A stretch of 63,617 nucleotides of DNA, filler included, from Reticulomyxa filosa (lineage: Eukaryota > Protista > Foraminifera): assembly GCA_000512085.1 (NCBI GenBank). It is 23 parts of 23 records of this genome, joined end to end, with 100 filler letters (N's around TTAATTAATTAA, not from the genome) between each part and the next. Parts side by side here need not be neighbours in the genome. Positions count along the whole stretch, not along the records: positions 19,126 to 22,812 come from ASPP01042800.1; positions 22,913 to 23,920 come from ASPP01040148.1; positions 24,021 to 25,020 come from ASPP01036175.1; positions 25,121 to 28,998 come from ASPP01018601.1; positions 29,099 to 31,077 come from ASPP01045178.1; positions 31,178 to 32,260 come from ASPP01013578.1; positions 32,361 to 34,702 come from ASPP01007676.1; positions 34,803 to 38,108 come from ASPP01003857.1; 15 more parts are not named here. One strand, given 5' to 3'. A model generated the notes under the pieces. It searched no databases, was not told the DNA's origin, and saw only the letters and a list, made by a program, of their open reading frames with translations. Numbering within the stretch: position 1 is the first letter of the stretch; the number at the start of each line of letters is the position of its first letter. Of the stretch, positions 10,966-38,108 are shown piece after piece. Both the position numbers and the translations under genes were made by a program.

Positions 10966-10992
10966 GTTTTTTTTTTTTTTTTTTTTTTTTTT

Positions 10993-11092: not shown

Positions 11093-11162
11093 CTATGCCA
11101 AGTTTTGTGTCTGCTGTTGTAAGTTGGGTTCGTTTATTGTTATATATATATATATATATATT

Positions 11163-11195
<33 letters not shown>

Positions 11196-11259
11196 ATGTT
11201 TATGTATACATATATATATGCACACTATATGTATAAATTTTTTTTTGGACTCATGAAAG

Positions 11260-14889: not shown

Positions 14890-15390
14890 TCATGGCATTG
14901 TAGCAATAGTTTGTAGGCAAGCGTTGCAACATTTAACAATTTGTTTGGAAGGTGGTAGTTCCAAGCGACAATGAGTAGACATTGGAACAAGCAATGGATT
15001 GGACCACTTTAGTTTGATTTGCGTGATGACTTCCTGGACTTGGTTCAGATCTTGAAACAAATATGTGGAACGCCAAGAGCTGGAGCGGATTGCAATATCA
15101 CAAAGGATCATTTGATGAATCAACTTCACAATATTTCGCACACAAAACACGTCATAAAAATCGGAGGAAATAATTGACAATAATTGATCCACAAAAAGGC
15201 TATGGCTGGAATGTGGTCGATCTTTTGCAAACGCAGTCAACACTATTTCCATCACATTTTTTTCATCGTTCCTGTTTTGGTCGCTTTCAAATGCTTCCAA
15301 TAATTTCGCGCTGCCGAAACGAGTCTCTTCTTCATTACAATTGCCATCAATTAACAAGTTTACCCATTCCCGGATCTCTGCTTCGCGGTC
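14890..15390 (-). CDS. Hypothetical protein, C-terminal exon (5'-partial)
   Basis: 155-aa open frame with coding-like composition that begins after an A-rich acceptor. No family recognised. Confidence 0.5.
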   Translation of the reverse strand, partial: DREAEIREWVNLLIDGNCNEEETRFGSAKLLEAFESDQNRNDEKNVMEIVLTAFAKDRPHSSHSLFVDQLLSIISSDFYDVFCVRNIVKLIHQMILCDIAIRSSSWRSTYLFQDLNQVQEVITQIKLKWSNPLLVPMSTHCRLELPPSKQIVKCCNACLQTIATMP

Positions 15391-15508
15391 TTTTTTTTTT
15401 TTTTTTTTNNNNNNNNNNNNNNNNNNNNNNNNNNNNNNNNNNNNNNNNNNNNTTAATTAATTAANNNNNNNNNNNNNNNNNNNNNNNNNNNNNNNNNNNN
15501 NNNNNNNN

Positions 15509-16167
15509 TGACTTTGATGGATGCTTTGAAGAAAACCGTCAGTCAACCAAAAAGGCAAACAAAGACATCATTCCGTATGTCAATCAGTGATGTTTATGAC
15601 ATTAAAGAAGTTGATGATGTGATCACTAGACATATTGGATAAGGAAAAATTACCCCTTGGTGTCCATGTTCGTTTTTATCCAACGAACAGTCGACAAAGC
15701 CGAAGCTAGTGACAAACGTTAATGTAAACGTGAAAAAGGAAAATAGGCCACAAACTGGTGATGTGATTTGCATTTATGGCCCTGCACACCAAATTTACCG
15801 CTTTGGTATTTATTCAAGATCATTTCAGGACAATTGAAAGCTGTGACTAATGATGGAAAAGACAACTATAAAGGAGAATTACCTTGTCAAATGTTGGAAA
15901 TTAAATGGAAAATGGAAAGTTGATAGCGCCACTTTCATTGAGACTGGTGACCAAGCTGTCAAAAATGCGATTAGTTGTGACATCCTTTGATTAATACAGA
16001 CTATTGAGTATGTCAAAAAAAATTTCTTGTACATATGATATCATGTATAATAAAAAATAATAATTTATATTGTGCCTGTTGTTATTATATTATTATAGGA
16101 AGAATGGTTACAATGGACAAACTTGTCGATTGTGCTGGGAAAAGTTGTGTCAGTAAAATGCAAATGA
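15509..16167 (+). pseudogene. EFL: EFL (EF-1alpha-like GTPase) pseudogene, domains II-III, intron retained
   Basis: Hand translation gives TLMDALKKTVSQPKR...FRMSISDVYDIKEVDDVITRHIG*GKITP, KENRPQTGDVI, QDH.GQLK, CQMLEIKWK, FIETGDQA and RMVTMD..SIVLGKVVSV. The DVIT.R and MD....LGKV patterns are EFL-type, not EF-1A (GTVPVGR). Contains stops and frameshifts. Confidence 0.8.
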
Positions 16168-17046
16168 GAGAACAACATAATTGAAACATCAGTTGAATTG
16201 ATAGAATGAAACTTTTTACGATCAGTACTGTTTAGGGGGGAGAGGTGTTTTTTTTTTTGCCTGCAGACAACAGCAGTTCTTGTACTCGTATAGCTTTTGG
16301 TTGCGTCAAGAAGTATACAAGACGATAAGAGATTGTATGCCAACTAAAACTCCAAAGATAACTTGATCAAACTAAGTCAAAAGTGGAACACAAGAGAAAA
16401 TGATGATAAAAAAGATTGTATCATTTTTTCGTTGTAACGCTCGTATGCTGGTCCAGGCGGCTATCGGGGCATATACTTGTGGAAGTGAAACACCACTTAC
16501 TCCAGGTAGGAAGCGGGTAGTAAGCGAGTGTGGCGGCTCACCAAGCGCCTATCATTATTTGCCTTTTTTTTATATCAAAAATTACGATCTCTGTAACATT
16601 ATACGAAGAAAATACATATTTGTATCATATGCTTTAAAATTTAAATTTACATCATTCGAAAAGCAATTTGATACATTGAGAAAACATTTGGGATTTTGTA
16701 AAAGTAATGCAATTGCTGCACGACCACAATGTCTTTTATACTTTTCTGGTGTCCATAAAAAAAGGAAAAACGTAGCGCAAAAATAAACTTAAGCAAGCAA
16801 AGAGTTATAAAAAATACCAACATCACATAGACATGAAAGTATTACAGCCCTCCCAAACATTAGTACTTTTTCAAGTCATCCCTCCCGCAAAAGAAATTAT
16901 TTCGTTTTTGTAATATTTTTTTCCCATATTGAGAAAAAAAAAAAAAAAAAAGCAAATCAAGACAAAATGACCACTTTTTATGTATTGTTGGCATTTCAAA
17001 ATTTTCTCTTAATCTAAGTCTCATCAAGTTTTTTTAAAAAAAAATA

Positions 17047-18953
17047 TCATTCGTTTGATGATTGGTTATCAAAATAACGACGAGAAAATTCAAATGCACA
17101 CGAACACGCCACACAAGAAGGTAGAAATTTGGTTAAATGATTTCCAAACCCGCGAAAGAGAAATTCACAGTTGACATTTTGCGACAGTATCTGTCGAATT
17201 TGTGTTGAAAACGTCACTGTATGGCCGGCCGTTGAGAGTAGTGAAGGTGAAGAATGAAGAGATAGCTGCAGAGCAGGATAGTACAAGACTGATGCCACAA
17301 CTCCGCCAGCCCCAGCTGTGAGTGCCACTTCGTTGAAACACAATTGCCTCTTATGATCAATCGATTGCGACTTCATATCTTTGAACAACTCAAAAGAGCC
17401 AAAAAAGGCTGCATAGCGTAAGCCCAACAATAAAGAAGCACTGGGTGCGCTCCAAGACACCAAAGACCCAGCAACACCAGCTGCAGTAAATCTCTCCATA
17501 AATGTTCGGTGCCATGGTTTGTTTTCTTTATCTGTTATTTTGTAAAGTGTTGTATTTTTACTGATTCAATAGCAACAACAATCTGTTCGAGATCATATTT
17601 TTTTTTTTTATTATTATTATTATTTACCTGTATGAAACAAATGTTGTTTCAGATGCTCGTACACCGAAAAGTAAATGGCAACGCCAGGAACGGTATGCAA
17701 AGCCAACAAGCGAACTCCTAAAGGTCTATTAAATGAAAGACCATTAGCAATACCCAGTGTGGTAAGAGTGACAGCAATGCCGCCACATGCTCCAGCGCGA
17801 CAATTGATCCATAGTTGCTCCCATAAGGAGTGAGAGCGTTTGACAGGCCTCATTGCCCATGTTCCACCATTTGGAACTTGGTTATTGTTTTGGCGCTCTT
17901 CATATTCGCAGTAGTCCATCGGTAACGAGGCGGATAACAAGTCGTCCCCTTTGCGATCAATTCCGTTGCTTTTTGCAAAGTGAGCGCAAAACATGTAAGC
18001 TCTTCTCAGCGTCTCACTTCGAGGCCGCGAACCGTCACAAAGCAAGTCCGTCTTCCAACTGGAAGTCGCGTTATCCACTTCAGTACCTTCAATTAGGTAC
18101 GACGCGATTCCTGTGTCCTTCGTCAAATACCATTGCTTTTTGTTCGCTGCTGGGGGTCGCGTCAAAGCGTTCAACCAAACAAACGACCTTTCCACAGTTT
18201 TTTTTTTTTTTTTTTTTTGAACTTGTATATCTTTATATCCTATACAATCGCCTTTGTAAACACATGTCAAATTAGTGACATTGCATTACCACAAAGATGT
18301 TAAGCTCTTCTTCACAACACCGCCACTGCCATGAGCAAGTAACGCAGTTATTTCTGTCTCAGCCAAGTGTGTATGTTCTTCGATCGACGAGCAACTTCCA
18401 GCGCTTTGCTTCATTTCAGTATCGAATACAATAGAGGTGTCATTTCCGTTGTCTTTGTCGTCCTCATCATTGTTATTGTTGTCATTAATATAATTATTAA
18501 CATTATCATTACTGTTGTCATAACCGGAATTGTTATCAATGCTAATACCATTGCCATCATCGTCATCATCATCAACGGCATTGATGACAGGGGAAGCAAT
18601 GTTATCGCCAACTTGCTCGTTATTGTCGTACACAAGGTCTGCTATTGGTGTTTGTTGCTCTTGTTCCAATTCTTCCTCGATCGTACATATTTTGGAAACT
18701 ACTTCGTCGGTCTCGACAACAGCAAAAACCTGTCCTTCTTTCTTCATCAAACAACTTTTGTCATACGACTGCGCATCGTCGCCTATTTCCAAAGTGGTCC
18801 ATTTCTTATCATTCATCGCGCTGCCATTGCTGGAGTAATGCTTATGCCATAGCTCTTCCAATTCTTTCATTGTCGACTTTGCAAACTTCAATGGTACAAA
18901 TTGCGCAATTTCTTGACGACACAAAGGACAGGAGAAGTTGTTACGCACCCATT
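17047..18953 (-). CDS. RING-finger (C-terminal half visible) + acidic linker + degenerate mitochondrial carrier (SLC25)-like domain, 5'-partial
   Basis: WVRNNFSCPLCR. In-frame splices TG|G (intron ~18289-18188) and G|AT (intron ~17628-17532). Carrier-like helices AGACGG...PGVAIYFSVYEHLK, AAGVAG...AAFFGSFELFK, AGAGGVVASVLYYP...LFRGFG...PSCVACSCAFEF. Confidence 0.7.
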
Positions 18954-19125
18954 CTTTTTTTTTTTTTTTTTTTTGTATTATTTTGTTACGTATACAAAAA
19001 ACACAAAAAATTATTTTTTTTGTTTNNNNNNNNNNNNNNNNNNNNNNNNNNNNNNNNNNNNNNNNNNNNTTAATTAATTAANNNNNNNNNNNNNNNNNNN
19101 NNNNNNNNNNNNNNNNNNNNNNNNN

Positions 19126-19740
19126 TTTATCTTCTAATCCATTTACATATTCAAAGGCATCATCTAATTACTTTTTATTTAATTTTATAGAAATATGTCC
19201 AATGAATCGTGCATACAAGTAAAGATTATGTTCATCGTTACATTTAAATTTATTAATCAAACACATGAAAGAAATATCAAATTGTGTTTCATTCAATTGT
19301 ATTACAAGTTTTCCCAATAAATCATTTAACATGTCACAATAATACTGATTTATATTTTGAAGTCCATCCACCAAATATTGAACAATAATATCCAATTGTT
19401 TTTCATTCCATTTTTTTGCAAGCACTTGTCGACATGACCACCGAAAAATCCAATTCCTATCTTTTAATCCATTTATCAAATATCATCAAAATATTTTCAT
19501 CCAGTTTCACTGCTATTGTCCCAAATAATTCTGCGCATTCCCTACGCCCATTTACATCATCACTTCTGCCATTTGATATACGCATTAAAGAGTTTAAGAC
19601 TTCCTTCAATTGTTTTTCATTCAATTTCAGCGCCATTCTTTCAAGTAGACAGGCATATTCACCCTGTCCATATATAGATCTCTTTTAAATATCTAATCTG
19701 CTGATCAAAAAATTAAAAGCATCAATCAATTGTTGTGCCT
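19126..19740 (-). pseudogene. Degenerate HEAT/ARM-like helical repeat gene
   Basis: Repeats such as LINGLKD...R.SC...L...A.K.NEKQLD, broken by frameshifts. Confidence 0.6.
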
Positions 19741-20667
19741 AGTTCTTTGTTTTCTTCCTTTACTTTTGAGTTTCATTAATACAAGTCCTCTGAATATTTT
19801 TCTTTTTAGTCTTTCCCCGAACTTGATATTTTTTCTTTGGTTTTAATAAAATTGGAATGTGTGGAAAGTTATTTCTTTTTAGTTTTTTGTTGTTTGCAAG
19901 TCCATTATTTCTGCAACTGATTGTAGCGAGTTATTTTGTAATGTATTTTGATGTGAAAATTGGACTTTAAAATAAAAAAGAGTCACATTGCATGAGTTTG
20001 TTCATGTAACATTATTTATACACGGATTTATAATTGAGGAATGCTTTGTCATCTAATTTTTACTTTCAATTTCTTCAACTTGTTCAAACACAGCGTGGAG
20101 GGGACAACGCTAAGAAAAATCTCTTCGTGTTTTTTTTTTTGGTAATTCATCCATAAACATTATAAACAGCAAGTTGGAAAGTAAGGAATGCCAGTGAATT
20201 TACCAATCCAAAACCTAATAATCAAGGAGGACGAGGTCGTAGATTACGTTATGTAAACTATGGACACTACGACGAGTTTGGAGAAAATGAAAATGCAGCT
20301 TTTTATAACAGCAAAGCAAGGAATAAAAGCAGAACTTTCCATAAAAGAATTTCTACTCATATGAACGAACTTCGAATTTTTGTTACCATCATGTTCAGAG
20401 CAGCGGATATTTTAATCGCAGACAAAGTCATGATTATCAGTATATCAGACAAAGTGTGTATCAACATCAAGAACAATAATAAAAACAACAATCGTTACAC
20501 GGGATATTGTCATGGTAATCACAGTTACGGTGATGATGATGCTTTATTTTGGAGTCAAAGAGGCAGAAAAAAGTATTGGAGACGTCGAGAGAAACTATAT
20601 TTGGTAAATGGACAAAATATATACATATATATGAAATATTTTTACTTTTAAACAAATTAAAAAATAG

Positions 20668-21463
20668 ACAAATGAAGAAGCAGATTTAATAGTAGAACAT
20701 TGGGTTTGGTCTTCGACGATTAAAAGATGATGGATTTATGAATTTAACAAAATAATTGCAAAATATGTTAAATTACATTCAGTATCAACACATTTCATAT
20801 ATTCATATAATTACATGTTGATATGTTAACATACTAACATAGGCCAAAGGTTTTTAAATTGTCGAAAGTATTAAAAGGATGCTCTTACAAAATTGACAAG
20901 CTAGCATTTTCGGCAGATGGTAGCAAGTTTTATTTGTTAGCAATGGATTGTACATTTGAAATATAAGACATTGCATTCGGTAAGAAAATTCAAACTTTCA
21001 ACAAAAGTAATGAAGTGCAAGATTTTATAGTATTTTCACCAGATGGGAGTACTTTGTATCGAATGCAAACAATGGAATGCAATCATAGGATATATAGCCA
21101 GGAAAGAAAGTGATGCGATTTGAAGAGATTATAGCACATAATGTGGAAATAAAATTTTCTTCAGATGGTGAATATATTGCTGCAATTTCATTTATTGAAA
21201 AGATTAGATTCTGGAAAACAAATTCAAAGACTAGAAGAAAAAAATAATGATAATGAGAAATATTCACCGAATAGACAAATAGCTGCATTATCAGTTAGTT
21301 TATTGGATATGAAATTGAATAAAAAAGTGAAAGAAATAGACATATATGATGCCTTAAAAGCAAAATTATCTCAAGGCGGTAGATTTCTTGTAGCTTTTTC
21401 ATTCTATAATAATGTGGTCACAATATTGGACTTGGAATCATAAGATGTGTTACAAGTAATATA
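20668..21463 (+). pseudogene. WD40-repeat pseudogene with N-terminal HWxR..GWI exon
   Basis: Exon 20668-20766 TNEEADLIVEHWVWSSTIKR*WIYEFNKIIAKY, then degraded FSADG/FSPDG/FSSDG WD units with stops. Confidence 0.75.
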
Positions 21464-23599
21464 TTTTTCCTTTCTCTAAAAGGCACGACAAATCGCAGTA
21501 TTTTGTTTATCATTTAAAAATTTAGTGGGAACACCGATACCACACAAAAAATATAAGTGATGTATTTCTTCAAGTGAAAACAATCAATCAAAAAATAATA
21601 AATCATGAATATCCAAATTGACAAAATTTTAGTTTTAAAAAACTTTAAAAGTGGTTATTAATGTTGTTGGAGTTTGAAGAGTTGGAATGGTCAGAAAAGT
21701 TGGGATGGTCTGAAAGATTGTTGCAAAAGCTGAAATAACTTGAAGAGTTAGACGATCTTGAAGAATTGGCATTTCGATTTTCATGGACCAAAATGGTCCT
21801 TCCTAAAAAAAAAAAACAAACAATAAAATATTTAAATGAAAAAAAAAAAGAAAAAAATTAACTTGTAGTGGAGTGACTAACACAATGAAACCAAAAAAAA
21901 TGGATAAAATTGTAATACAAATAATCGCAATTGGATCTTTACTAAAATTAGCGGCATATAACAGTTAAGCAACACTTATACTTTGATAACAGAAATTTGA
22001 ATGCTGGCATTTAGCGATCAATTCATGTAAATATGTCTTGTCTTGCATATTAACCAGATACAAAAATTAGTGAAAATCTTTCCAAAAATTCATCTCTTTT
22101 TGAAAAAATTTTCATTATTTAAATTCTTTCTTTTTTTTAATCTTTGTTTTTTCTTTTATTCAAACTTCTATTATCTATTTACAAATCTTCTTTTTTGTTA
22201 TTCTCCTCACGGCTTGAAAGAAGAAAAAAAAAGAAACAATCATTGGATGAAACGGATATGTCAAAGAGTTCTGAAACGAGTGTGGAAAAAAAAGAAGCGA
22301 AGCTATGGTGATTGCTCTCATCTCCTTTTCTTTTTCGTGGATGTCGATTACTTCGAAGTGTTACAGGTGTGAAAATCTCCTATCGACTTATCTCAATCTC
22401 TTTTTATTTGTGTTTGGATAGCTATCTCGTGCAAGTAACCCAAATCGAATCTATAAATTTCGACAATATTTCTATTATCAACGCATATATCAACAATAAT
22501 CTGATTGAAACGATGAACAAAGAGCCAGTGCAATTACCGGATAAAAGATTGGCGTACAGTTGGATATAACCATATTACGAAACAGTCACTATTTGGCAAA
22601 TATTGTTACGAAAATGAATTTGACTGTTCCACTATTTATTATTACAAATCATCACATGTTCAATATCAATTACAATCGTCATTGTCATCGTTATATTGCT
22701 GCAAGTTGATGCTGCGCCCCATGTCGGACGGAAGCTCACGAGAAACGGACTACAAAATTGGAGACATCTACAGTATGTTACAAAGAAAACTGAACGCCTA
22801 AAACGATATCCTNNNNNNNNNNNNNNNNNNNNNNNNNNNNNNNNNNNNNNNNNNNNTTAATTAATTAANNNNNNNNNNNNNNNNNNNNNNNNNNNNNNNN
22901 NNNNNNNNNNNNAGGGGATGCACTTTTTTTTTTTCAAAAACTCTTTCCAAACACTAAAATTCTTGCGTGCAAGAATTTTATTCTATCTTTTTTTCATTTT
23001 GCAACAATCCACTAAGAAATATTTTTTCACACCAAGATGTGATAAGTAGTTAGTTCTGAAATTCTTGGATATGCCTCTTTGGTAATCACAAGAACACATA
23101 ACTCATCCTTACGCTCTACGTTCACTGCCAAACAGCAATAGTGTTGGAAAAAAAAGAAAAATATGGACCATTTTAAAAATGTTTAATAAATGCAAATGTT
23201 ATTTCATTTCAACAAAATTACTACTTCGTTATCGATCGTCAATTGTTTGAATATCTTCAACGACCACTTTGTATATTCGATATCATCTTATAGTGACCCC
23301 ATTCGGAGAAAGTATTAATGCAATGTGACCATTAGAATCAGTACATCACAATTGAAAGAAACACATGAAATTGTGCAAGTACATTTGAACAATTTCATAT
23401 GCAACGATTTATTGCTCTGGTTTACATAATGAACCAAAAAAAGATTGTTATGTAATGTGAATTTTTGCGCATACCTTTTTTTTAATATAAATTTGAGAAC
23501 TTTGTATTAATTGTGTAGTTTTAGTCAGTAATACGTCAAACTTTTTAGTTGAAGGAAGTGGAAAAAAAGAAAAAAGTGGAACAAATTTTAAATATATTT

Positions 23600-23920
23600 G
23601 GATCATGCTGGAGTCCGATCTTACAGGAAATACTGAAGTGAAAGGCTATGAATCCAAACAACGAAAGCTATGCACATGACACTTTGTAAAGACTTGTGCA
23701 TACGTTGGGGTTCACAGAGCAACAGCCTCACAGATGGGATTAAATGGAAACAAGCAATTGGCGATAACTTTGAACAGCGCATGGGTGATGACTTGTGCGT
23801 TTTCGCCATCGTATGATTACATTGCAAGTGGTGATTTGGACAACATTGTGTCTATTTTCCGAATTACCGCAAAAGACAAGAATGCGCCAAACGGAGGAAA
23901 ATTTAAATCAAAAGTTGAGT
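23600..23920 (+). pseudogene. Heterotrimeric G-protein beta subunit pseudogene fragment
   Basis: AITLNSAWVMTCAFSPSYDYIASGDLDNIVSIF matches G-beta AIPLRSSWVMTCAYSPSG..VACGGLDNICSIY. The upstream part is degraded. Confidence 0.75.
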
Positions 23921-24146
23921 NNNNNNNNNNNNNNNNNNNNNNNNNNNNNNNNNNNNNNNNNNNNTTAATTAATTAANNNNNNNNNNNNNNNNNNNNNNNN
24001 NNNNNNNNNNNNNNNNNNNNATATGTATATGTATATAAGTGAATGTGGCTCCATTGTTTGTCAAATAAAACCAAACTCAAACTCAAACTCAAACTTATCA
24101 ATGATTAGAAAAAGAGGGAGAAAAAGGAGAGCCGATAGACGTAAGC

Positions 24147-25020
24147 AATGAAAAGCCGCAAAGTCCGAATAACAAGGACTTGGAGACGACACCAGGAAAA
24201 GGAGTGACGGGAATGGGAGCAGAGACAGTGACAGCGACAGCGACAGCAGCATTGGCGCCAGCGACCGAGGCAAAAGACGAAAAGACGACGAAGATGACGG
24301 AGAAAGACAAGGAAGACTTTGTGGCGGATGTGATCAAAGAGTACTTGCATTTGTCAGCGTCGTCTGTGAAGATCAAATTCCCGCTGGTCTCCGCCATATC
24401 CAACGAAATGTTGATCGAGCAGACGAGACATTTGCCGTTTTACCAATATCACGACTTTATGGTGCGAATCATGGAAAAAGAAATGAAGCGTTTGGAAGAA
24501 GAGAAAAAAAGAAAATTGGAGGAGACAGAGCGTCAGCGTCGAAGATCGCAAGCGGATTCCACGTTACAAAAGCCTGTCGGTCGTCGTTCTTTGCTCGGGA
24601 ATTTCTTCGGTATATACATATATATATACATATATATGTATATATGTATATATTTAGTGATCTCCTCATCTAAACTACACATATACATATACGTATATAT
24701 ATATATGTACATATATGGATAGGGCTTTTTAGTGGAAAAGAACAACCCGAGGCCGGAAAAGAAGAAGAAACAGACGATGAAGACGACCACAAGACTTCTA
24801 GAGGACGTATGAAAGATGCAAGCAGTGCTCCTGGCTCGCCTTTGAAATCATTTGCGAAAAGCAAGTCGTCCAGCAACATATCGACTCCCAACATTGTGTC
24901 ATCGCGTCCCACTATGCTCCGCCAAAACTCGGCAGACACGCCTCGTACGGATCGTGTGGTGCAGACTGAGCGTGCTCGGCAAAATGCCACCAAGTTGTCG
25001 GCACGTGAGAGACTGGACGA
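24147..25020 (+). CDS. Hypothetical protein (small helical domain + coiled coil, 3'-partial, TA-repeat intron ~24610-24722)
   Basis: Open coding-like frames 24180-24610 and 24723-25020, separated by a GT..AG microsatellite intron. Confidence 0.55.
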
Positions 25021-25273
25021 NNNNNNNNNNNNNNNNNNNNNNNNNNNNNNNNNNNNNNNNNNNNTTAATTAATTAANNNNNNNNNNNNNNNNNNNNNNNN
25101 NNNNNNNNNNNNNNNNNNNNTTTTTTTTTTTTTTTTTTATTTTCCCTTTTTTTTTTTTTTTTTTGTTTTGTTTTTTTTTTATCCTTTCAATATTTTTGTG
25201 TAAACTAACAATCGATACGTATACGAAAAACAAAAACAAAAACATGCAACAACACGTACTTAGTTAATAATAG

Positions 25274-26419
25274 ATACATTTGGCCGAGGATGCACCAAGT
25301 TGTATTTTGTGTTGGACGAAGCCAGCAACGGCCCCAAAGAGTATCACGGAGTTGAAACTTTGACCATTTCACTGTCACGTGAACAAGGAAAAGATATCAA
25401 GCAACGGAATATTTGGGAGAAAGTTCACCGAATGTGGGCACGTGTCTATCAGGTCTTAAATAGTTTTTTTTTTTTTTTTAAAGTCCAAGCAATAAAAAAA
25501 AAAAAAAAATATTTCGTGTTCAGACGGAACTTAACAATTTTGATTGGTTCATTAAAGCTGATGACGATACATTCATCATGACAGAAAATATGCGCGGATT
25601 TTTGCAATATTACGACCCAAATTACCCACATTACTTGGGACACACACTTCGTGCGCGCTGGGGCGAGGAAAATTTAATATTTAACAGTGGCGTGTGCTAC
25701 GTTATGTCTCGTGGAGCGTTGAACAAATTGGGGCCGTACATTTCGCACTTGCCTTCGCTTCCTGCCCTCACCGCGAGATCTCATTGTATCGATCGCGAAG
25801 GAGCCGGAGAAGACCCGACCATGGGAGTTTGTATGGGCGGTGTGGGAATTAGACCTGGTAAGTTTTATTTGTTTGTTTGTTTGATTAAAAATTGCTTCGC
25901 ATATGCGTATACGGATACAAACATCACGTTCGATTTTTTGTGGATATTTTTTTTCAAAAAAAAAAAGGTAACACTTTGGATCATGAAATGAGAGAAAGGT
26001 TTTTGATATTTCGACCAGAGGATCATGTCAAAATTATTCGAGAAGACACATGGTATTGGGCATTCAAACCACCTCAAGTGAAGCAAGGGGAAGATTGCTG
26101 CTCGCCTTATATTGTTTGTGCTCATAATTACAAGCTCTTGGATGAAGCACAATACTGGTATCCCATTTTACAGGAAAAATATAACCAACCCAAAGACTGG
26201 AGCAAGATCCCATTACCGCCGCTTCCACGCACTTTTATCTACGATCCCTCGCAAGCCAATTTTGAATTTGACGATTACTTTAATATTAAAAATCCTCCCG
26301 TTGGACAAAGAATTTGTCTTGGTCCTGGCAAAGAGTGGCAATGTGCGGGGTGCAATCTCAGTGATCCTGAAGATGTTTTTCGGACAGACTGGTGGGATGG
26401 CCCCGTCCAAAAAAAATAG
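25274..26419 (+). CDS. GT31 glycosyltransferase, C1GALT1/T-synthase-like (5'-partial, introns)
   Basis: TFGRGCTKLYF, DWFIKADDDTF (DxD motif), ENMRGFLQYYDPNYPHYLG, SGVCYVMSRGAL, EDPTMGVCM, D...RERF..F.P..H, CCS. Confidence 0.88.
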
Positions 26420-26889
26420 ACATTACATCTTCCTTGCTCTTTGCTTTTTTTTTTTCCTTTCTTCACTTTCATCAATCAAACATCTCATTTTTCATTGTTT
26501 GTCAAAAATTAGAGGCTCCATTTCCCTTGCTTTTTCTTTCTGTTGAGTTTATTTGATAGTTGTGCCGGTACACATTTTTGTGTATCACTTTATGTTTACT
26601 TTTGTGTTCGTTTCATTGTTTTTCAAGAATTTCATCACATTTCATTGTGTTTATTGAAATGCTCGTTGCACCAAGTGAACATCGCACCGATTTTACATAT
26701 TTTGTCAGTCAAAATTTGACATTTTATATCAGTCAACGGCAACAAATGGTGTGGTTGAGAAATAGCATTTTATAAGTATAGATTATATAATAATTACAGA
26801 TTTATTCCAAAGGTAGTAAAAAAAGTATGAATTATATTACATTTGCCGTTTTTGTGGAAAATTTACTTAAACAATTTAAAGATTTCTTT

Positions 26890-28261
26890 TTAAAAAAACG
26901 TCCCAAACACGAATAGAGCCACGATGTGAACCATAACACAGATTAATACCATAACCACGATTAATATTACTTTTGCCTTTCTTTTTCAATTGCAAAAAAT
27001 TTGAGGCACATTATTCCACTATCATCGTCACATCCTTCAATCAAATGTAACTCACTCTTATTTGATCGAATATCCCAAAAACGAATTGTATTATCAAATG
27101 ATCCAGAACATATAACATTTGAACTTACCACTAAATTCACTATTGCCTACTGCAAATTGTGGATATCCAACAGTATACACATAACTTGTGTGCCCATTGA
27201 ATACTTGAATTTGTTGACCGGATCGAATATCTCACAAGCGAACACTGTTATCTTTTGATCCAGACAATATTGTATTTGCATTACCAACAATTCCATCTGA
27301 TGCATATTTTACGCTAGTAACCCAAGCTTCATGACCTTCAAATGCAATCAATTGCTTCTTTGCTTCAATATCCCATATTTGAATGGTTTTATCCCATGAC
27401 CCAGAACAAATTGTATATCCATTACCACCTGTCAAACCAATAGTATTATCTTTATTACTATTTTTGCTGCTACGCAATGGTGAAAAATCAACACATTGAA
27501 CACCGCCTTTATGTCCATTAAAAACATGACACAATTTGGATGCTTCAACATCCCATAAACGAATAGTTGAATCACATGATACAGAACGCAAATATTGGCC
27601 GCCATTAAATTTTGAGAATTCAATTCCAAAAACATAACTCCTGTGTCCTTTATATATTTGCAATTGTTGGTTATTTCTGATATCCCAAAAACAAATTGTT
27701 TTGTCATAAGATGCAGAACAAATGACATGACGGTTATAATGATAATGATATGGTGAAAATCTCACACCACACAGGACCTGAATGTTTATAGGATAATTGA
27801 ATTGGCTCCTTTGAATCTACGTCATGTACATAAACTGTTGAATCGTATGATCCAGAACAAATGAGTTGATTACCATCCAATGTTGAATAATCAATACTAT
27901 TTACAGGCCAAGAGTGCCTGCTAAATGTTTGGAGTAGTTTAGGTGACGAACGAAACGTATCAAACATGAAAGAAGTAGCCTGATTAATAGTGATAACGAA
28001 TATGCAAATAATATTTGTTTGCCATTATTGAATGAAAAACTAAAAACGTAACATATTTGACAACAATTTTGTCAAACTCTAGGATCCAACCTACTTTTAT
28101 ATTCAATATTCGAATCCAATGTTGAATAATTAATTGGATATCTTCTTCTAACTGACTCAGACACAGTAAATACAACGAACATAGGAGGCAAGCGTTTGAA
28201 GATTTGAAAGAAAACTTACTATATATGTTGATGCTACTTTTTTACTGAGAGATGTGCCCAT
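26890..28261 (-). pseudogene. WD40-repeat pseudogene (MFDTFRSS.KL subfamily) with N-terminal HWIR exon
   Basis: Many GH...V....S....ICSGS.D.T+.+WD units. Frameshift near 27765 and a TGG>TGA stop at 27232 (VRL*DIRS). Confidence 0.85.
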
Positions 28262-29098
28262 TTTTTCTCAATTTCTGTTATCCTCTTAGATGATGTAAAA
28301 TGAAAATTTTTTTAAAGGGGCTGTCAAAACTACTTTAAAGATTGAAGAATTTGTGATAATATGTTTTTGTACATTGCAAATACAAAGAATTACAACACAA
28401 TATATCGATACATTGGCCAGACTATTTGCAATGGATTTTGACCGTTTAGAAATAGTCCAAAAGAGTTATTTTAAAAGCAAAGTAAAACATAGACTAAAAC
28501 GCAATTTTTTAAAAAACATCAAAACTAAAAAAAGTCAAAATAAAGTAAAAGCAAACATTTCATATTTGCATAAATTAATAATAAAATATTTGCACAATAC
28601 AATTAAACAGTGCACATTTAAAAAAAAAGGAAAGAAAAGAAAAAAACGTTCCAACTTTGTTAACTTTCATTAGAGCGAGGTTTGACTGGACATACTAAAA
28701 CTTACTTTGTGCTTTAATTTATTGAATTATTTTTCTTTTGTTGTTTATTTTGTGCATAAATGATTATTTATTGTTTTAAAATAAAATAACACTAAAGTTG
28801 CAGCACTCACCGAAGAGCAAAAAAAGTAGGTTCAAGGGACAATCCCTTTGCAATGTACCCTCTCCTAGACAAGCAAATGAAGACCGACGAAGTTACAAAC
28901 AAGAGCGTCGGCGAATTGTGCCAAGTCCAGTGCCAGAAAAAGTTCTGTCCAAATGTGTCAAATATTCAAGCGTCAGTTGTAAACGGAGCGCAGGGCCCNN
29001 NNNNNNNNNNNNNNNNNNNNNNNNNNNNNNNNNNNNNNNNNNTTAATTAATTAANNNNNNNNNNNNNNNNNNNNNNNNNNNNNNNNNNNNNNNNNNNN

Positions 29099-29560
29099 TT
29101 TCCCTAAAAAAATTCTACATGACTATTTTGGTTGAAGTGCATAATTCCGACAAAGAAAACAAGATGAAAGAGTTTGATGCTTTATTTTATATTTTATTGT
29201 TTACATTAGTATTTTTGAATAATAGATAATAACAATGGTGATTATACACAGTAATGCCACTTGAAGTATTTTTTATATTGATAACACATATATTGATACA
29301 TATTTTGTATTTCTTTGTTTGAAATAATGAATAGAAACAAGAACAAGAAAATACAGTGAATGAAACTAATGACAATAACAAGATTGTACCAAAGAAAATG
29401 AAAAAAGCAGAAATTGGAGGAACCAATCTACAAGGGTATTGCGGCAATGAAATTTGTTTGGTATCAAAGATAAAATTATCAGTTTGTGTGAATATTGAAT
29501 TTGGTAATATTACATAATAAATCTTTTAGTTGTCAACAATTAATTTAATTGTTTATATCT
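29099..29560 (+). pseudogene. Remnant of a repeated family with a G.NLQGYC.N..C motif; paralog of 36420-36975
   Basis: Exon ~29334-29517 translates KQEQENTVNE...EIGGTNLQGYCGNEICLVSKIKLSVCVNIEFGNIT*. The DNA aligns by eye with the reverse complement of 36420-36975. Confidence 0.6.
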
Positions 29561-30017
29561 TATTCCAAAATATTATAATGAATTAAATCATTTCTCAAGT
29601 CAATAAAGAGATAATGGATGTTATTTATAAAAATATTTCATAAAATATTGTACATATTTAATTGCATTAATATTGCAAAAATCCTCTTCACAATGGTTTT
29701 ATCTTTTATTTTAGGTGGTTTTACTACTGTTGTCAGATATTTTTGTAACTCATGCACCAAATCTATTACTATATAACTACCTTTTTGGAATAATCATTGC
29801 ATATATTGTTATCATTTAGTTCCTTTTATTTTATGAAAATGACAAATATATCAATAAAATACATATTCTCTTTATGCAGAAGTTATTTTTAAAAAAAGTT
29901 GATAAATTTCATAATTATGATACTAACACAAATGAAAAAATTTAAAGAAGATATTATTTAGATAAATTTTAATTTAGTCTCTTTATGGAAAAATTGATTA
30001 TTTCTATATATCAATAT

Positions 30018-31077
30018 TTATTTCATTCTATTGTATTTTATAATAATTTGATCAAAATCATATATCCATCCAAATTTTATTTCTGAAGTTCGAATCCAAT
30101 ATTGAATAATATATTTCATTTCATGTTTTGACTGTTTATTATTTATTATTTATCAACTAGTTTCACACAATACAATTTATTTGTGTTTCGTCAAAATAAA
30201 TAAATAATAAATAAACAAATCATTACCAACTGTGAAGAATCCCATACATTCACTTTTGTCTTCATGTGAGTTGATAAGAAGGCATTTTTATCATTTTGTC
30301 CTCCAATAATATGTATATCATTGTCTTCTTCACTCAATATTGCAACGCATTTATATAATGAATTGGGTAAAGTATTTTGAAATGCCATCCATTTGTTTTC
30401 TCGAATTGAATATTTATATACTAATTTTGAAATAGTCCATTTTTTACCATTCCAACCATATCCACCAAAAAATAAAATGATATCATTGATACATACATAT
30501 GCATATTGATAAAATGATGCAATGTTATCATAAACAGATAGTTGATGAAATTGAAAAGTGTTATTATATTCATCATATTCAATTGATAATCCTGTCTTAA
30601 AACAAAATAACAACATTTGATAATTTTGTTTATTTTTTTTTGTTCTTGTACATTTTCTGAATTTGATACAAAGCAATGATAATATATTAAATTACCAGTT
30701 GGTAATTTATCATGTTTAATATATTGAAATGTATTTAAATCAAACACACTAATATTTTTATAAAGATAAGTGATAAATAATAAATGATTGTTGCTTCCAC
30801 CAATCACTGCACGTACTCCTTGATAAAAATGATTTTCATCTCTTCCAATGATAATTGGACGATTACGATTGTCTGTGAAAGGAATCCATTCATTACAATT
30901 TTTTGATATATTACTCCAAACACTTATATATTTCATCACCAATGTATGTTTCTTTGTATATGCAGATCCACCAAAAGACAATAAAGTGATTTGATTTCTG
31001 TCTTTGTTATTGTTATCTACTAGTTTCACTACACAATGTCCATCTAATTCAATATGACTTGGATATTCACAAATAAA
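30018..31077 (-). CDS. Kelch-like beta-propeller protein (5'-partial, frameshift near 30650) with C-terminal YWIR..GWI exon
   Basis: ITLLSFGG, GVRAVIGGSNNHLLFITY, IILFFGGYG, YKYSIRENKW, IHIIGG. Intron 30226-30132, last exon SKHEMKYIIQYWIRTSEIKFGWIYDFDQIIIKYNRMK*. Confidence 0.8.
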
Positions 31078-31229
31078 NNNNNNNNNNNNNNNNNNNNNNN
31101 NNNNNNNNNNNNNNNNNNNNNTTAATTAATTAANNNNNNNNNNNNNNNNNNNNNNNNNNNNNNNNNNNNNNNNNNNNATACATACATACATATTTACTTA
31201 CATATATGTATATGTGTATGACTTTGAAC

Positions 31230-32260
31230 AGGAAATGGGAGACTTCACTGGCAGAACAAAATCTGCGCAATGAGGTATCGCTCCGCGACACCAAGTTGGA
31301 ACACTTGGAATCGCATTTGCAACAAAAAGGCAAAGAAGTGCAAGAGCTGAAAGAAAACTTGCGTTCGATGGAAACAAAGTTGGATGAGGCCAAAGTAAAA
31401 TGCGATTCACTTTCTCAACTCAATGCTCGTTTGGAAGTCCAGCTTAAAAATTTTGAGTCACAAAATGAATCAGTTTCGTTGTCACACACACACACACACA
31501 CACAGACATATGCATACACAAACATAAGAGAGGACATATACATAAATATATAAATATATATATATATGTATATGTATATATGTACATATATATATATATT
31601 ATCTTTGTACAGCTGCAACATAGCGTGGAAGAACAGAAGACGGAAATAAAATCCCTTCGCGAGTCTATTGACACGTTGAAAAACAAGCACGAAACCACGG
31701 CCGCACACAAGTATCGCGCGTCGGCACAAGAAGAACTGGTGAGTTCATTGAAAACGAGGAACGCGTCATTGGAGGGCAAGTTGGAGGAGTTGCAAGAGAA
31801 AGTAGCGACATTGAAAGCAGAAATAGCACGCATGCAGGCGGAAAAGGCCACGCTCGACGATCGATTCGAGACACTGAGTCAGTCGACGCAATCGAAGCTG
31901 ACGCAGATCGAGCGTCTTCAGGACATGGTCAACGAGTCGCATCAAAGAGAGTCGAGTCTGCAGCTCAAGCTCAACAGTGCACAGATGGAAATGGAAAAGC
32001 TGCGTTTGACGTTGGAACAGTGGCAGGGCAAGTATGCGCAGCTCGAAAAAGGACGGAAAGAGGGTGCGGACAAGGACGAGTTCTTACAGCGAAGCACCGA
32101 TCTGTTGAAAGAAAAGTCATTTTTAAAGTTTGGAGTAGATCGCTTGCGAAAGAAGAGTGTGTCGAAAAAGGACATTGTCGATGAGCTTTTTGATGTGAAC
32201 ATGCATGGCGAAGAGTTGGAACCGAAAGGGTTTGAATTCCGGGTTTTTAAAAACCCGGAA
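31230..32260 (+). CDS. Long coiled-coil protein fragment
   Basis: Continuous heptad E/K/L/Q-rich frames 31206-31470 and 31613-32260, separated by a CA/TA-repeat intron. Confidence 0.65.
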
Positions 32261-32360
32261 NNNNNNNNNNNNNNNNNNNNNNNNNNNNNNNNNNNNNNNN
32301 NNNNTTAATTAATTAANNNNNNNNNNNNNNNNNNNNNNNNNNNNNNNNNNNNNNNNNNNN

Positions 32361-32988
32361 CCGACGTACAGCAACACCGGCGTCTCGCTGCCAAAGCCGT
32401 ACTGCTGGCGCAGGGCATCGCGTTGGGCACGCGCGTCCTGCGGATTGAAAACGCGGTGTCGATGCCGTTGTAGATGACGTGGCAACGCTCGGCCGGCAGG
32501 CCGGTGTATTGCATGACGTCGCGCTTCACCATCTCGGAAATGCATACCACGCCGCGAAACGCCGGGTCGCGGTACATGCGTTGCTCCATCGCCCGCATAT
32601 AGTGGTGATAAGGGTTCAGCGCCATCGATACGCGCGCGGCCAAGCCACCACGCTGGCGCCGCACGTCCAGCCAGGCGGCGTGTACACCGTCGTCGGCACG
32701 GTAAACATGGCAGCCGGGAATGCGCTCGTGCGATAGCACCAGGTCGGCCGGCAACTGCTGCCAGACGCGGCGGGCGGCACGGGCAAAGCCCCAGTCGCGC
32801 CACACACTACCCAGATAAAACGGGTTGACGCTGCGCGCCTCGATGCCGGGCACGGGCTCCCAACGGCGGTTGATCAGCACCGGTTGCAGGGCCTGCTGCC
32901 CTTGCAGCTGGCGCAGGATGGCACTGACCACGCGCTCGGCACCGCCGGCGGGGTTGAATTTCTGCCGGATGATGGCGAGGTAAGTCAT
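32361..32988 (-). CDS. Bacterial GT4 LPS core glycosyltransferase (WaaG/RfaG-like), 3'-partial
   Basis: MTYLAIIRQKFNPAGGAER...SHERIPGCHVYRADDGVHAAWL...CISEMVKRD...HVIYNGID. ATGA overlap with the upstream gene. Apparent 1-nt indel near 32450. Confidence 0.85.
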
Positions 32989-34067
32989 CGGCCTTGCTCC
33001 TGCAGGCTGTCGTAGGCGGCCAGCACCTGCTGCACGCTGATCTTTTCCAGGCATTCGCTGCGCCAGCCGCCACCACAGCCGGCGTTGCCGCACGGGCGAC
33101 ACGGCACGGTGGCGGCCACGACGCGGTGCGGTACTTGCCACGGGCCCCACTCGATATCGCCAGACGGGCCGAACAGTGCCACACACGGCGTCTGTACGGC
33201 AGCGGCCAGGTGCATCGGTACCGAATCCACCCCGATGTAACACTTTGCGCCCGCAATGGCCGCGGCCAACTCCTTCAGGCTGAGCTGGCCGGCCAGGCTG
33301 GCCACCGGGTGTTGCAACTGGCCGGTAATGTCGGCCAGCATGGCCAGCTCGTCGGCGCTGGGCGCAGCCGTCAGCAAGATGCGTTCGCCACGGGCACTCA
33401 GGATATCGATCAGCGCCGCCATCTGGGCCGGCGGCCAACTCTTGAACAGCCAGCGCGAGGTGGGGTGCACCAGAACGTAGCCGTCGCGCTGCAAGCCCAG
33501 GGCCTGCAACTTGGCGGTCAGCGATGCCTCGGCCGCGTCACCGGGCACGATGTGCAGCGCCCGCTGTGCCGGCGTGGCGTAAATGCCGATGCGGCGCAAC
33601 GCATCGAGGTGGATTTCCACGGTATGCCTACGGTTGCCCGGCACCTGCAGATAGCGGTGGGTAAAGCTCTTGCGGAAGAAGCGGCCATACGGGCCATCGG
33701 GCCCGACCGACCAGCGCGGCTGCAGCAGGCGCGCCAGCCAAGCGCCACGGTTATGCTCGGTGAGCGTGATGACCAGGTCGTAGCGGCGCGCCTTCAGCGT
33801 GGCCAGCAGGCGCCACTCGGCACGCAACTGGCCCAGCGGCCCCAGCTTCTTCCACTGGCGGTCGATGGTGTGCAGCTGCGACAGCCCCGGGTGACCGGAC
33901 AGCATCTCGCGCGTGTCGTGGTACACCAGCGCGTCCACTTCGGCATGCGGCAGCTGTGCCTGTAGCGTGGTCAGCAACGGCGAGGTCAATAGCACGTCGC
34001 CGTGGTGGCGCAGCTTGATCAGCAATACGCGGCGCACGGCCGACGGGTCGATGGCATCTGTGAGCAT
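32985..34067 (-). CDS. waaQ: Bacterial LPS heptosyltransferase III (GT9)
   Basis: RRVLLIKLRHHGDVLLTSP, HPTSRWLFKSW, GVDSVPMHLAAAVQTPCVALFGPS...WGPW. Confidence 0.9.
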   Translation of the reverse strand: MLTDAIDPSAVRRVLLIKLRHHGDVLLTSPLLTTLQAQLPHAEVDALVYHDTREMLSGHPGLSQLHTIDRQWKKLGPLGQLRAEWRLLATLKARRYDLVITLTEHNRGAWLARLLQPRWSVGPDGPYGRFFRKSFTHRYLQVPGNRRHTVEIHLDALRRIGIYATPAQRALHIVPGDAAEASLTAKLQALGLQRDGYVLVHPTSRWLFKSWPPAQMAALIDILSARGERILLTAAPSADELAMLADITGQLQHPVASLAGQLSLKELAAAIAGAKCYIGVDSVPMHLAAAVQTPCVALFGPSGDIEWGPWQVPHRVVAATVPCRPCGNAGCGGGWRSECLEKISVQQVLAAYDSLQEQGR

Positions 34068-34085
34068 GAAAAGAAAAAAGCCGGA

Positions 34086-34702
34086 TCAGGCGTCCGGCCC
34101 GGCATTCAGTTGTTGCAACAAGTCTGCGATTCTATCAGGGTCTTCGCTGCGCAGGATACGCGCCACCAGCGGTGACAGCGTGTCAAGGTGACTGTTGAGC
34201 ACATTCTGCTTCACGGTCAGCAGATTGGCCGGGTGCATGGAGAAGCGGCGCAGGCCCATGCCCAGCAGCAAGCGGGTCAGGCGCTCGTCGCCAGCCATTT
34301 CGCCGCACACCGACACCTGCACCCCGGCCTTGGTGGCCGTCTTGATGGTATGCGAAATCAGCTTCAGCACCGCCGGGTGCACCGGGTCGTACAGATGGCT
34401 GACCGAGTCGTCGTTGCGGTCCACCGCCAGCGTGTACTGGATCAGGTCGTTGGTACCGATCGACAGGAAATCCACGTGCTTGACGAAGCTACCCACCACC
34501 AGCGCGGCGGACGGGATCTCGATCATGGCGCCCACTTCCACTTCCTCGGCAAAGGCCACGCCTTCCTCGCGCAGCTCCTTACGGGCGTAGTCCAGCTGCG
34601 CCAACGCCTGCTTCAGTTCGCCCAGACTGTTGATCATCGGGAACAGGATGCGGATCTTGCCGTAGATGCTGGCGCGCAACAGTGCACGCAACTGGCGCGG
34701 AA
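34086..34702 (-). CDS. ptsI: Bacterial PTS enzyme I (PEP-protein phosphotransferase), C-terminal part
   Basis: QLRALLRAS, GAMIEIPSAA, FLSIGTNDLIQYTLAVDR, VSVCGEMAGD, LLLGMGLRRFSM. Confidence 0.95.
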
Positions 34703-34802
34703 NNNNNNNNNNNNNNNNNNNNNNNNNNNNNNNNNNNNNNNNNNNNTTAATTAATTAANNNNNNNNNNNNNNNNNNNNNNNNNNNNNNNNNNNNNNNNNN
34801 NN

Positions 34803-35755
34803 TTTTCATGTCCTTTGAATACATTGAATTGTTTTGTTGTTTCAATATCCCATATTCGAATGGTTTTATCATCTGATCCAGAACAAATTGTATATCCATT
34901 TCCACCAATCACACCAATATTATTCATTTTATTATTATTATCATTGTTATTATTGCTTTGTAATGGCGAAATATCAACACACCGAACATAATCTTCATGT
35001 CCATTGAAAATATGTAATGATTTTGATGTTTCAACATCCCATAAACGAATTTGTCACCAGACCCAAAACATAAATATCTACCACCATTAAATGGTGAAAA
35101 TTCAATTCCATAAAAACTATTCAGGTGTCCATTGAATTTTTGTAATTGTTTATTATGTTTGAAATCCCAAAAACGAATTGTTTTGTCAGCTGATGAAGAA
35201 CAAATGACATGCTGACAATAATTATGATAATAATATAGTGAAAATTTCACACAATACACATTACCTAAATGTCCATTGAATGATTGAATTTGTTTGTTGT
35301 TATCAACATCCCATACACGAACTGTGTTATCAGTTGATCCAGAACAAGTGAATTGACAACCATCAAATGTTGAATAATCAATACTCCGCACAGTGTCAGT
35401 ATGTCCAATAAATGTATTGATTAACTTGGATGATGAGCGAAATGTTTCAAACATGATGACAGTAGATATCTATTTAAATATTTGAATATTTTGATTGGTA
35501 TTTTAAAAAAATAATAAATGAACTAACATAATTGACAACAAGCTCGTCAAACTCATGAATCCATCCTAGTTTAATTTTTAATATTCGAATCCAATGTCGT
35601 ACGATTACTTGAATCTTTTCTTCTTCAGACTGTTTGAATTACAAATTACATACTATAAATAAAACAATAAAAAAATAAACTTTCTAAAAGCTTGTAATAA
35701 AGCTTACCAACTCTATTTGAGCTGAAGTTTGCTTCTCATTGCTAAGGGTTGTCAT
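34803..35755 (-). pseudogene. WD40-repeat gene or pseudogene (MFETFRSSSKL subfamily), 3'-partial, frameshift near 35050
   Basis: ATG 35755 MTTLSNEK, exon 35629-35528 SEEEKIQVIVRHWIRILKIKLGWIHEFDELVVNY, then GHTDTVRSIDYS...WD units. Paralog of 26890-28261. Confidence 0.85.
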
Positions 35756-36419
35756 TTTGTTTTTTGCTTAAGATTGTTTTTGATGATGTAAAATGGAACT
35801 TTTTTCTCAAGGGTAATGAAAGGGGTTTACAAAAATATTTTTGGCAACGTGAAATAGGATTTTGACAATACATGTAATTGTTTTTTCGATAAGGACAAGA
35901 AATTTTTTAAAATTTGTACAAAACTGAGTATACACGTTTATCACAATTTTTTAAAAGATTTTCAACAAAAACTTTGAAAATAGTGTTTTGTAGTTCTCGA
36001 AGAACGTTTGAAAAAAAAAAGGAATTTTGATGTTGAAACAAAAAGTGTAATTTAACATAACTTTTATAGACTTTGCATGTGTTTGTTTTTAAATTGATTA
36101 TTGCTTCGCTAAGCTTGAAGAGTAAACATTTGAATATTCGACTTTGAAACATTAAACCTGTGTAAACATAAATTTCATAAATGATATGCTTAAAAGACAT
36201 TTAATGGTTAATATTTCTTTAGATGATAACACAACTCTTGGAATGCAACAATTTGTAGTAAAGGCCATTGTGAAGAGTATTTTTACAACATTAATGTGAT
36301 TAAATAACAATATGTTATCAAATAAACACAAATGAAATATTTTTACAAATGATATTCATTATATCTCTTTATTGGCTTGTCTCATTTGCAAAACTTGAGA
36401 AATAATTTAATTCGTTATA

Positions 36420-36975
36420 ATATTTTGGTAATAATGTACAAACAATTAAATTAATTGTTGATTTTTTTACTGAAATGAATGCAATATTATCAAATTTAAT
36501 ATTCACACTGATAATTTGATTGATACCAAACAGACTTCATTGCTGCAATACCATTGTAGATTAATTCCTCCAATTTCTGCTTTTTTCATTTCCTTTTGTA
36601 CAATCTTATTATTGCCATTAGTTTCATTCATTATATTTTCTTGTTCTTGTTTCATTCATTATTTCAAACAAAGAGATACAAAATATGTATCAATAATGAA
36701 TTTGTGTTCTTCAGTTCATTGGTTTTGATTTTTGATTTTAATTTGTTTTATATAATCTTATGTGTTATCAATATAAAAAATATTCCAAGTGGCATTCCGG
36801 TGTATAATCACCATTTGTCACTATCTATCAAAAAAAAATAACAGAATACAGAGTTTCTCCTTTTCTATTATTCAAAAATAATAAAATATAAAATAGAACA
36901 TTAAATTCTTTCATCTTGTTTTCTTTATCAAAATTACGCATTTCAACCAAAAATAGTGTAGAATTTTTTTTAGTT
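36420..36975 (-). repeat. Second, inverted copy of the element at 29099-29560
   Basis: Near-identical blocks in both copies, e.g. AAAGAAAACAAGATGAAAGA, AATGGTGATTATACAC, AAAAAAGCAGAAATTGGAGGAA. Confidence 0.85.
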
Positions 36976-37033
36976 TAAACGTAGTCTGTTTAAGGGGGAC
37001 TCAAAAGTTGAATTGTGAAAAGTTAATGAAAGA

Positions 37034-38108
37034 ATGAGTACCACTGCTACAAAAAAAAAAAGACTACATCATCTTTGGTAAGTTTTCTTCTCTTGAATCG
37101 AAGCAAGACGACTAAGACGACTTAACAAAATAAAAGACAGACAAAAACGATAAAGAAAATAATTGAAAATTGGCTTCGAAATGAAAATGTAAAATCAGGA
37201 TGGATCAGCGATTTTAACAAATTTGTTTTTAAATATGTTAAGTGCCATTTTAAAAAAAAAATTCAAATTTGAACAATTTATTCGTTATTCGTTATCACAA
37301 ATTTCTTCAATGAAATAGGCCAGCCCTTTTAAATTGTTGCGAACATTAAAATATGGTTACCTCGTATATAATATAAGATTTTTATCAGATGGTTGTAAGA
37401 TTATTTCAGCGACAGTTGATGGAGCAGTTAACGTCTGGGATATCAAGTCAGGGAAACAACATCAGCTATATCTAAACTTTGATGACAAATGCTATATTGC
37501 AAACTTTGCACCTGATGGAAATACATTTGTCGTGGGCTCTCAGAAAAGCACCTTCGATTGTTGAACTTGAAAGAGACACAATGCGAGAATTAAAAGGGCA
37601 TTATAAGGAAATACATGATGCAAGCTTTTCTCCAGACGGTAAATACCTTGCATCAGGTTCAAATGACAAAACTATACGAATATGGGATGTGAATTCTGGA
37701 AAAGAGATACACAAAATGAGTCATAAGCGCACGGTACAGAGTGTGCAATTTTCACATGATGGCCGAATGATCGTCTCGGGTTCTGCTGATCGTATGGTTG
37801 CTATATGGGATGTAATATTAGGTAAACGATTGAAAGTGTTTGATAAACATAAGGACGAGGTATATCGTGCAAGGTTTTCTCCAGATGACAAATTTATTGT
37901 CTCAGGCTCCGCTGATAAAACAATTCGAATCTGGGATGTGGAGTCAGGGGAGCAATTAAAAATATACAAAGATTTAGATATGGTATATGATGTGAAATAT
38001 TTTTCAGACGGCAAAACTATTGTATCTTGTGGAATGGGAACAACCATTTGTTTATGGGATGTAAAATCGGGAAAAGAAATAAAAAGATTAAAATCTCATT
38101 CTGATGCG
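37034..38108 (+). CDS. WD40-repeat protein (FSPDG subfamily), 3'-partial, one frameshift near 37550, N-terminal NWLR..GWI exon
   Basis: Exon 37141-37236 TKTIKKIIENWLRNENVKSGWISDFNKFVFKY, then LKGH...FSPDGKYLASGSNDKTIRIWD repeats. Confidence 0.85.

Follow-up and report, generated by a model that had tools for sequence, protein, structure and literature searches.

A conserved 33-residue box on WD40 and Kelch propeller genes of Reticulomyxa filosa, a candidate docking motif for a cullin-RING adaptor

Box copies and their genes in the window

The window analysed here comprises 63,617 nucleotides of the foraminiferan Reticulomyxa filosa (assembly GCA_000512085.1), in which 23 contigs are joined by artificial spacers. 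It carries five copies of an amphipathic module of 33 residues, referred to below as the box, on the contigs at 19126-22812, 25121-28998, 29099-31077 and 34803-38108, four of them in genes for WD40 propellers and one in a gene for a Kelch propeller. As read from the sequence, an AG precedes every copy; the box exons of the WD40 genes (99, 99, 102 and 96 nt) all end at the donor TAT/GTT, and the copy in the Kelch gene reads through to the stop codon. The splice sites were deduced from the sequence together with annotated paralogues that are joined at identical points, and in all five genes the preceding exon ends with a Leu or Ile codon and a phase-0 donor. These five copies on four contigs, with their positions and splice signals, had been claimed in an earlier note made from the DNA alone, and the translations agreed with it letter for letter. 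A hidden Markov model (HMM) built from four copies recovered the held-out copy at 20668 with 25.9 bits (E 1.5e-9), the top non-copy scoring -2.3, and a profile of 64 box sequences gave the five copies 35-55 bits and everything else at most -2.5.

Stops or frameshifts occur in all five genes, two of which carry nonsense substitutions as well as several frameshifts. The first is a pseudogene of WD40 subfamily B on the plus strand, with the box exon at 20668..20766, where a TGA at 20728-20730 replaces the conserved Gly21, and a degenerate WD40 exon at 20843..21476 containing several stops and frameshifts, the ends of which are approximate. The second is a minus-strand gene of subfamily A, whose box exon at 28053..28151 is identical to residues 4-36 of P0012 (RFI_21301), an annotated R. 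filosa protein that matches the 28151 copy exactly, and whose propeller at 26903..27979 has an in-frame stop near 27232 and several frameshifts. The other three genes show a single frameshift each, located in the propeller, and all three propellers are truncated by contig ends. In the Kelch gene on the minus strand, the propeller at 30227..31077 is followed by the box in the last exon (30018..30131), where the stop lies five codons past the conserved Tyr33; its frameshift near 30640 falls within a run of A and could stem from a sequencing error. Another subfamily A gene on the minus strand consists of a short first exon of 16 codons (35708..35755), with a Leu codon last before the phase-0 donor, the box exon at 35528..35629 and a propeller at 34803..35469 with a frameshift near 35047. 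The plus-strand subfamily B gene has its box exon at 37141..37236 and its propeller at 37319..38108, with a frameshift near 37560. At 35528-37236, box genes of the two WD40 subfamilies thus stand head to head with about 1.3 kb between them.

Family size, conservation and architecture

A word-indexed search gave 75 box matches in 283 candidates, all named as R. filosa, and HMMER, run over all 1.84 billion representatives, gave 173 matches at E values up to 0.001, the best 150 of which were used. Combination of both searches resulted in at least 212 distinct box proteins, and the size of the family, like its broken window members, agrees with what had been suspected from the window. From the 137 unnamed proteins, the 30 most divergent or unusual were looked up and all belonged to R. 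filosa, which is the source of all 105 named box proteins among the 212. Related clusters of 52 to 117 members were found in the ESM Atlas, with Foraminifera as the commonest phylum; an Atlas query with the box region itself returned no usable feature match. Relatives of the Kelch-box protein were sought in metagenome contigs, where none of 176 stretches was confirmed, the box pattern was not found in viral contigs, and the four prokaryotic box matches were all due to chance (three at 7-14 bits, the fourth lower). Extrapolation from five copies in 61,417 bases to the R. filosa assembly of 101.9 Mb (PMC13746701) gives about 8,300 copies (95% range 2,700-19,400), an estimate biased upward because the window was chosen for this cluster. 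The box is a real and strongly conserved module of a large gene family, so far seen in one species. It is apparently undescribed: no description was found in the literature covered, which did not include the R. filosa genome paper, where expansions of WD40 or Kelch genes may be mentioned.

In each of the nine class pairs measured, conservation was higher in the box than in the propeller. Between the two WD40 subfamilies, identity amounted to 50% in the box and 31% in the propeller, the latter value bearing out the earlier recognition of two distinct subfamilies. Among the 199 of 213 matches that passed a filter on W22, which is therefore a selection criterion in these counts, the residues kept were G21 (195), Y33 (194), W12 (193), F26 (189) and R14 (188), and with I23 included the range is 186-195 of the 199 boxes. 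Across the five window copies, pooled pN was 0.31 and pS was 0.52 (uncorrected, 32 codons). The expectation that no described Pfam family would account for the module was upheld, since neither four boxes nor 64 boxes matched Pfam beyond chance. Sequence-profile searches of the PDB with the box gave best E values of 0.23 and 0.61, which is chance level, and a profile of the last Kelch blade plus the box had no match in the PDB. With box-WD40 profiles, no best stretch started inside the box among the 60 PDB matches listed.

Among the 212 proteins, box-WD40 architectures predominate (108 of subfamily A and 34 of subfamily B, together 142), followed by 24 Kelch-box proteins and 11 three-part Kelch-box-WD40 proteins of subfamily B, with 31 models containing only the box and four others. 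WD40 follows the box directly in 153 proteins and not in the 24 Kelch-box proteins. The box-only models mostly read into a retained intron, the four others look as though adjacent genes had been merged, and no new recurring partner domain was found in the 31 box-only and nine long models. WD40 and Kelch propellers are the only recurring partners, so more than one propeller type carries the box, as had been proposed. Extra domains with a single occurrence comprised a weak NACHT match (P0130), DUF3839 (P0092) and a TRAF finger (P0132), all in what look like merged or intron-retaining models. The box-WD40 start of P0132 is preceded by a stretch rich in cysteine and by a TRAF-type zinc finger that stays under the cut-off (E 6.4e-5); this model probably represents two merged genes and possibly a fourth architecture.

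The order of the domains is invariably Kelch, box, WD40. The three-part genes are real; five have an identical junction and three group together with full support in the WD40 tree. In the three-part proteins that diverge most (P0080, P0198, P0204, P0205 and P0215), Kelch and box are separated by a charged, coiled-coil-like spacer of about 35 residues. The nearest box belonged to the same class in 98 of 98 cases for subfamily A and 29 of 30 for the Kelch genes, and more loosely in 18 of 31 for subfamily B. Shuffling of a symmetric-phase exon had been the first account of the distribution, and free-exon shuffling was rejected as the main explanation, given the fixed order, the three-part genes (11 of 212) and the grouping of boxes by gene class. 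Together with the upstream intron that the genes have in common, these features favour gain or loss of propellers around a fixed box. WD40 identity within class was 41-43% for subfamily B and the three-part genes versus 57% for subfamily A; as the most diverse, the former are probably older. The box-WD40 combination was probably the older unit, in front of which Kelch would have been added, and either propeller would have been lost later.

AlphaFold models residues 339-375 of the three-part protein P0064 as helical and closes both propeller rings without them, which agrees with the prior view of a separate module instead of a closing blade. On this model, the box is a separate helical module, not a propeller blade or a closing strand. 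It is predicted as an unbroken helix of low confidence in P0064 (pLDDT 51-62), and also as one unbroken helix when modelled alone (pLDDT 92). Hydrophobic periodicity is helical (95 degrees) in residues 1-16 and 22-33 and extended (155 degrees) in residues 15-24, and the near-invariant Gly21 suggests a turn. Fold searches with the three-part model returned propellers only; in one of them DCAF5, beta-TrCP and WDR33 aligned into the box region, a WD40-driven alignment that does not discriminate. The isolated box helix had no match in a fold search.

Candidate partners of the box

Cullin-RING receptors display a conserved box on many variable propellers, in the classes given in PMC13061254. The R. 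filosa box is likewise more conserved than its propellers, as expected of a docking site for one shared partner. The chance that it is a docking motif for one shared cullin-RING ubiquitin ligase adaptor is judged about even. DDB1, engaged by a DDB1-type helix-loop-helix, is tentatively put forward as the leading candidate for this adaptor, ahead of Elongin C. The box would dock the propeller onto the shared adaptor, most likely DDB1, and each propeller would choose targets for destruction. It would form a helix-loop-helix with the turn at Gly21, seated in the DDB1 cleft like the motifs of DCAF proteins, in a receptor repertoire that would expand and decay.

In length (about 30 residues), in helicity and in its place directly N-terminal to WD40, the box resembles the DCAF H-box, for example residues 1050-1079 of DCAF1. 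The DCAF1 motif of 30 residues is N-terminal to its WD40 (PMC6821201), the DCAF helix-loop-helix motifs have very low sequence similarity among themselves (PMC13061254), and the Cul4/DDB1 complex goes back to early eukaryotes (PMC2785787). The WDxR motif occurs in the largest box subfamily, in 33 of 35 subfamily A propellers, with two or more copies in 25. Leu-Gly closes helix 1 of the box, and helix 1 of many H-boxes also closes with Leu-Gly.

Several results weigh against docking on DDB1 or on any cullin adaptor. WDxR was present in only two of 14 subfamily B and none of five three-part proteins, and PMC13061254 describes it as frequent but not present throughout, and as making no direct contact with DDB1. 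Sequence searches of Pfam and the PDB linked the box to no DCAF, SOCS or F-box. The Kelch-box proteins end in the box and lack WD40, whereas DCAF1 uses both parts (PMC6821201). Differing from the helix-loop-helix, AlphaFold gives one helix, both alone and in context, and 135 of 185 boxes have a helix 1 of LisH-like pattern. The order of events outlined above rests on trees that fit repeated architecture change with weak support, from which short rows and all but eight subfamily A rows were omitted and of which the Kelch tree is unrooted. Unlike the H-boxes, moreover, the box is strongly conserved over hundreds of paralogues, and its docking on DDB1 is putative.

Elongin C ranks second as adaptor under the cullin-adaptor explanation. 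The box would be a diverged BC-box plus cullin-box that came from a Kelch receptor of the KLHDC type before it was combined with WD40, a reading held to be distinctly improbable. Against the PDB, the Kelch profile scored best with KLHDC10 (E 4.5e-7), the closest solved Kelch, and KLHDC2 and KLHDC3 were among the matches listed. Of the Atlas clusters outside the Foraminifera, KLHDC10 and KLHDC1 came nearest (0.82-0.84), as leads only; the KLHDC10 alignment in the PDB search, however, stops short of the box and an unrelated Kelch is nearly equal (E 3.4e-6). Like the CRL2 receptors KLHDC2, KLHDC3 and KLHDC10, in which a C-terminal BC-box and Cul2-box follow Kelch, the Kelch-box proteins end in a helical tail, of 41-45 residues in nine of ten measured, versus 41 residues (402-442) in the cullin receptor KLHDC10, and KLHDC3 and KLHDC10 are present in the SAR lineage (PMC10591846). 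Hydrophobic spacing alone suits a BC plus Cul2 box in 143 of 185 boxes, and InterPro holds no model of the Cul2 box. Against this, the BC-box consensus [TSP]Lxxx[CAS]xxx-hydrophobic (PMC13342108) was found in none of the 185 boxes in any register, so the echo of a SOCS box perceived in the earlier note did not hold up; a Cul2 box was satisfied in one box and a Cul5 box in none. The signature Leu, Cys/Ala/Ser and Pro each score zero of 185 in register, the Cys/Ala/Ser position being Ile, Leu or Val in 179 boxes and position 23 never Pro. Comparison of the box profile with one viral SOCS box gave a probability of 0.1, a weak test with a single sequence. In most members the box precedes WD40, in the most divergent three-part genes the charged spacer of about 35 residues parts it from Kelch, and Cul2 and Cul5 are reported as animal-specific (PMC2785787).

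F-box-WD40 and F-box-Kelch expansions combine a short box with a variable propeller in large families with many broken copies, and the box family has the same layout, size and broken copies. The difference is that the F-box-like half-pattern ends the box, after which the stop or the first WD40 strand follows directly; 19 of 24 Kelch-box proteins end within nine residues of the box, and the later F-box helices have no room. Because the remainder could not be accommodated, a Skp1 partner, named among the first candidates, became unlikely, and Skp1 as the adaptor is rated as barely credible. F-box identity was also unlikely from Pfam, where 64 boxes had no F-box match at E values up to 10. Classification of the box as a SOCS, BC or F-box is not warranted. 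That it is instead a new cullin-adaptor docking motif, unrelated to F-, BC- and H-boxes and serving thousands of copies in one foraminiferan, is considered unlikely. If true, the family would be among the largest ubiquitin-ligase receptor repertoires of protists and a candidate for an innate defence system that evolves by birth and death, a role in immunity being speculation.

The LisH motif is helical, about 33 residues long and known from LIS1, TBL1 and muskelin, and it occurs with both WD40 and Kelch propellers. The box is similar in length, helicity, propeller partners and the pattern of helix 1 (hydrophobic at 5, 8, 9 and 13, aromatic at 12, the fit in 135 of 185 boxes mentioned above), and could be a LisH-like self-association motif that pairs Kelch and WD40 proteins into multi-propeller complexes. 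Such pairing of Kelch-box and box-WD40 chains would recreate the three-part protein, and the single helix predicted for the box has hydrophobic residues at intervals of seven positions. The second helix does not fit: Gly17 was found in one of 185 boxes, an aromatic residue at 18 in none and a hydrophobic residue at 25 in three, and neither four nor 64 boxes matched the Pfam LisH model. The near-invariant Trp, Arg and Gly of distant paralogues would also fit one fixed outside partner better, and LisH-like pairing is regarded as rather unlikely.

A fixed partner is indicated by the conservation pattern, which does not indicate its identity, and the propellers might be docked on a cytoskeletal, membrane or chaperone scaffold outside the ligases, or the amphipathic box might be a targeting helix. 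Ligase domains are not stably fused to the box, as the TRAF-type finger appears in one of 212 models, apparently a merged one. This non-ligase explanation is nevertheless thought improbable, because cullin receptors are known for large families of genes that pair a box with a propeller (classes in PMC13061254) and the nearest Kelch relatives are ligase receptors. The breakage of all five window genes, and the occurrence of the box only ever alongside propellers, would suit a mere structural propeller cap or a passenger exon in neutral gene amplification. Since the box is the most conserved part of these proteins, occurs on two unrelated propeller types and between them, and leaves rings that close without it, this account is very unlikely.

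The box provides a short handle on hundreds of R. filosa genes labelled 'WD-40 repeat' or 'hypothetical', in a group of organisms, the Rhizaria, whose cell biology is barely known. A shared ligase adaptor would imply an unusually large and fast-changing set of target selectors. Should DDB1 prove to be the partner, the family would amount to a DCAF expansion across the lineage in which Kelch domains are recruited as well; binding to Elongin C in the absence of the signature residues would call for broader BC-box rules. Either outcome would show how a protist constructs a large receptor repertoire.

Neighbouring sequence

An inverted segment of about 660 bases with 74-79% identity is shared by 29106-29696, downstream of the Kelch-box gene, and 36265-36970, between the two divergent WD40 genes, and represents a repeat or gene fragment adjoining box genes. 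On the contig of the 20668 copy, frame-broken fragments of a helical repeat gene lie at 19168-19684 on the minus strand. A glycosyltransferase gene with a weak Fringe-like Pfam match is located at 25264-26419. A WD40 fragment without a box, cut by the contig end, lies at 23680-23920 and looks like a G-protein beta subunit. The contig at 32361-34702 has 66% GC (24-44% in the window) and intronless genes, including a family 9 heptosyltransferase, and looks like bacterial contamination of the assembly. Outside the window, a giant-virus bin (L008, 431-1635) encodes an Elongin C, 71% identical to that of an insect, and immediately downstream of it a protein that carries a SOCS box at its C-terminus, so that adaptor and receptor are neighbours in a virus record.

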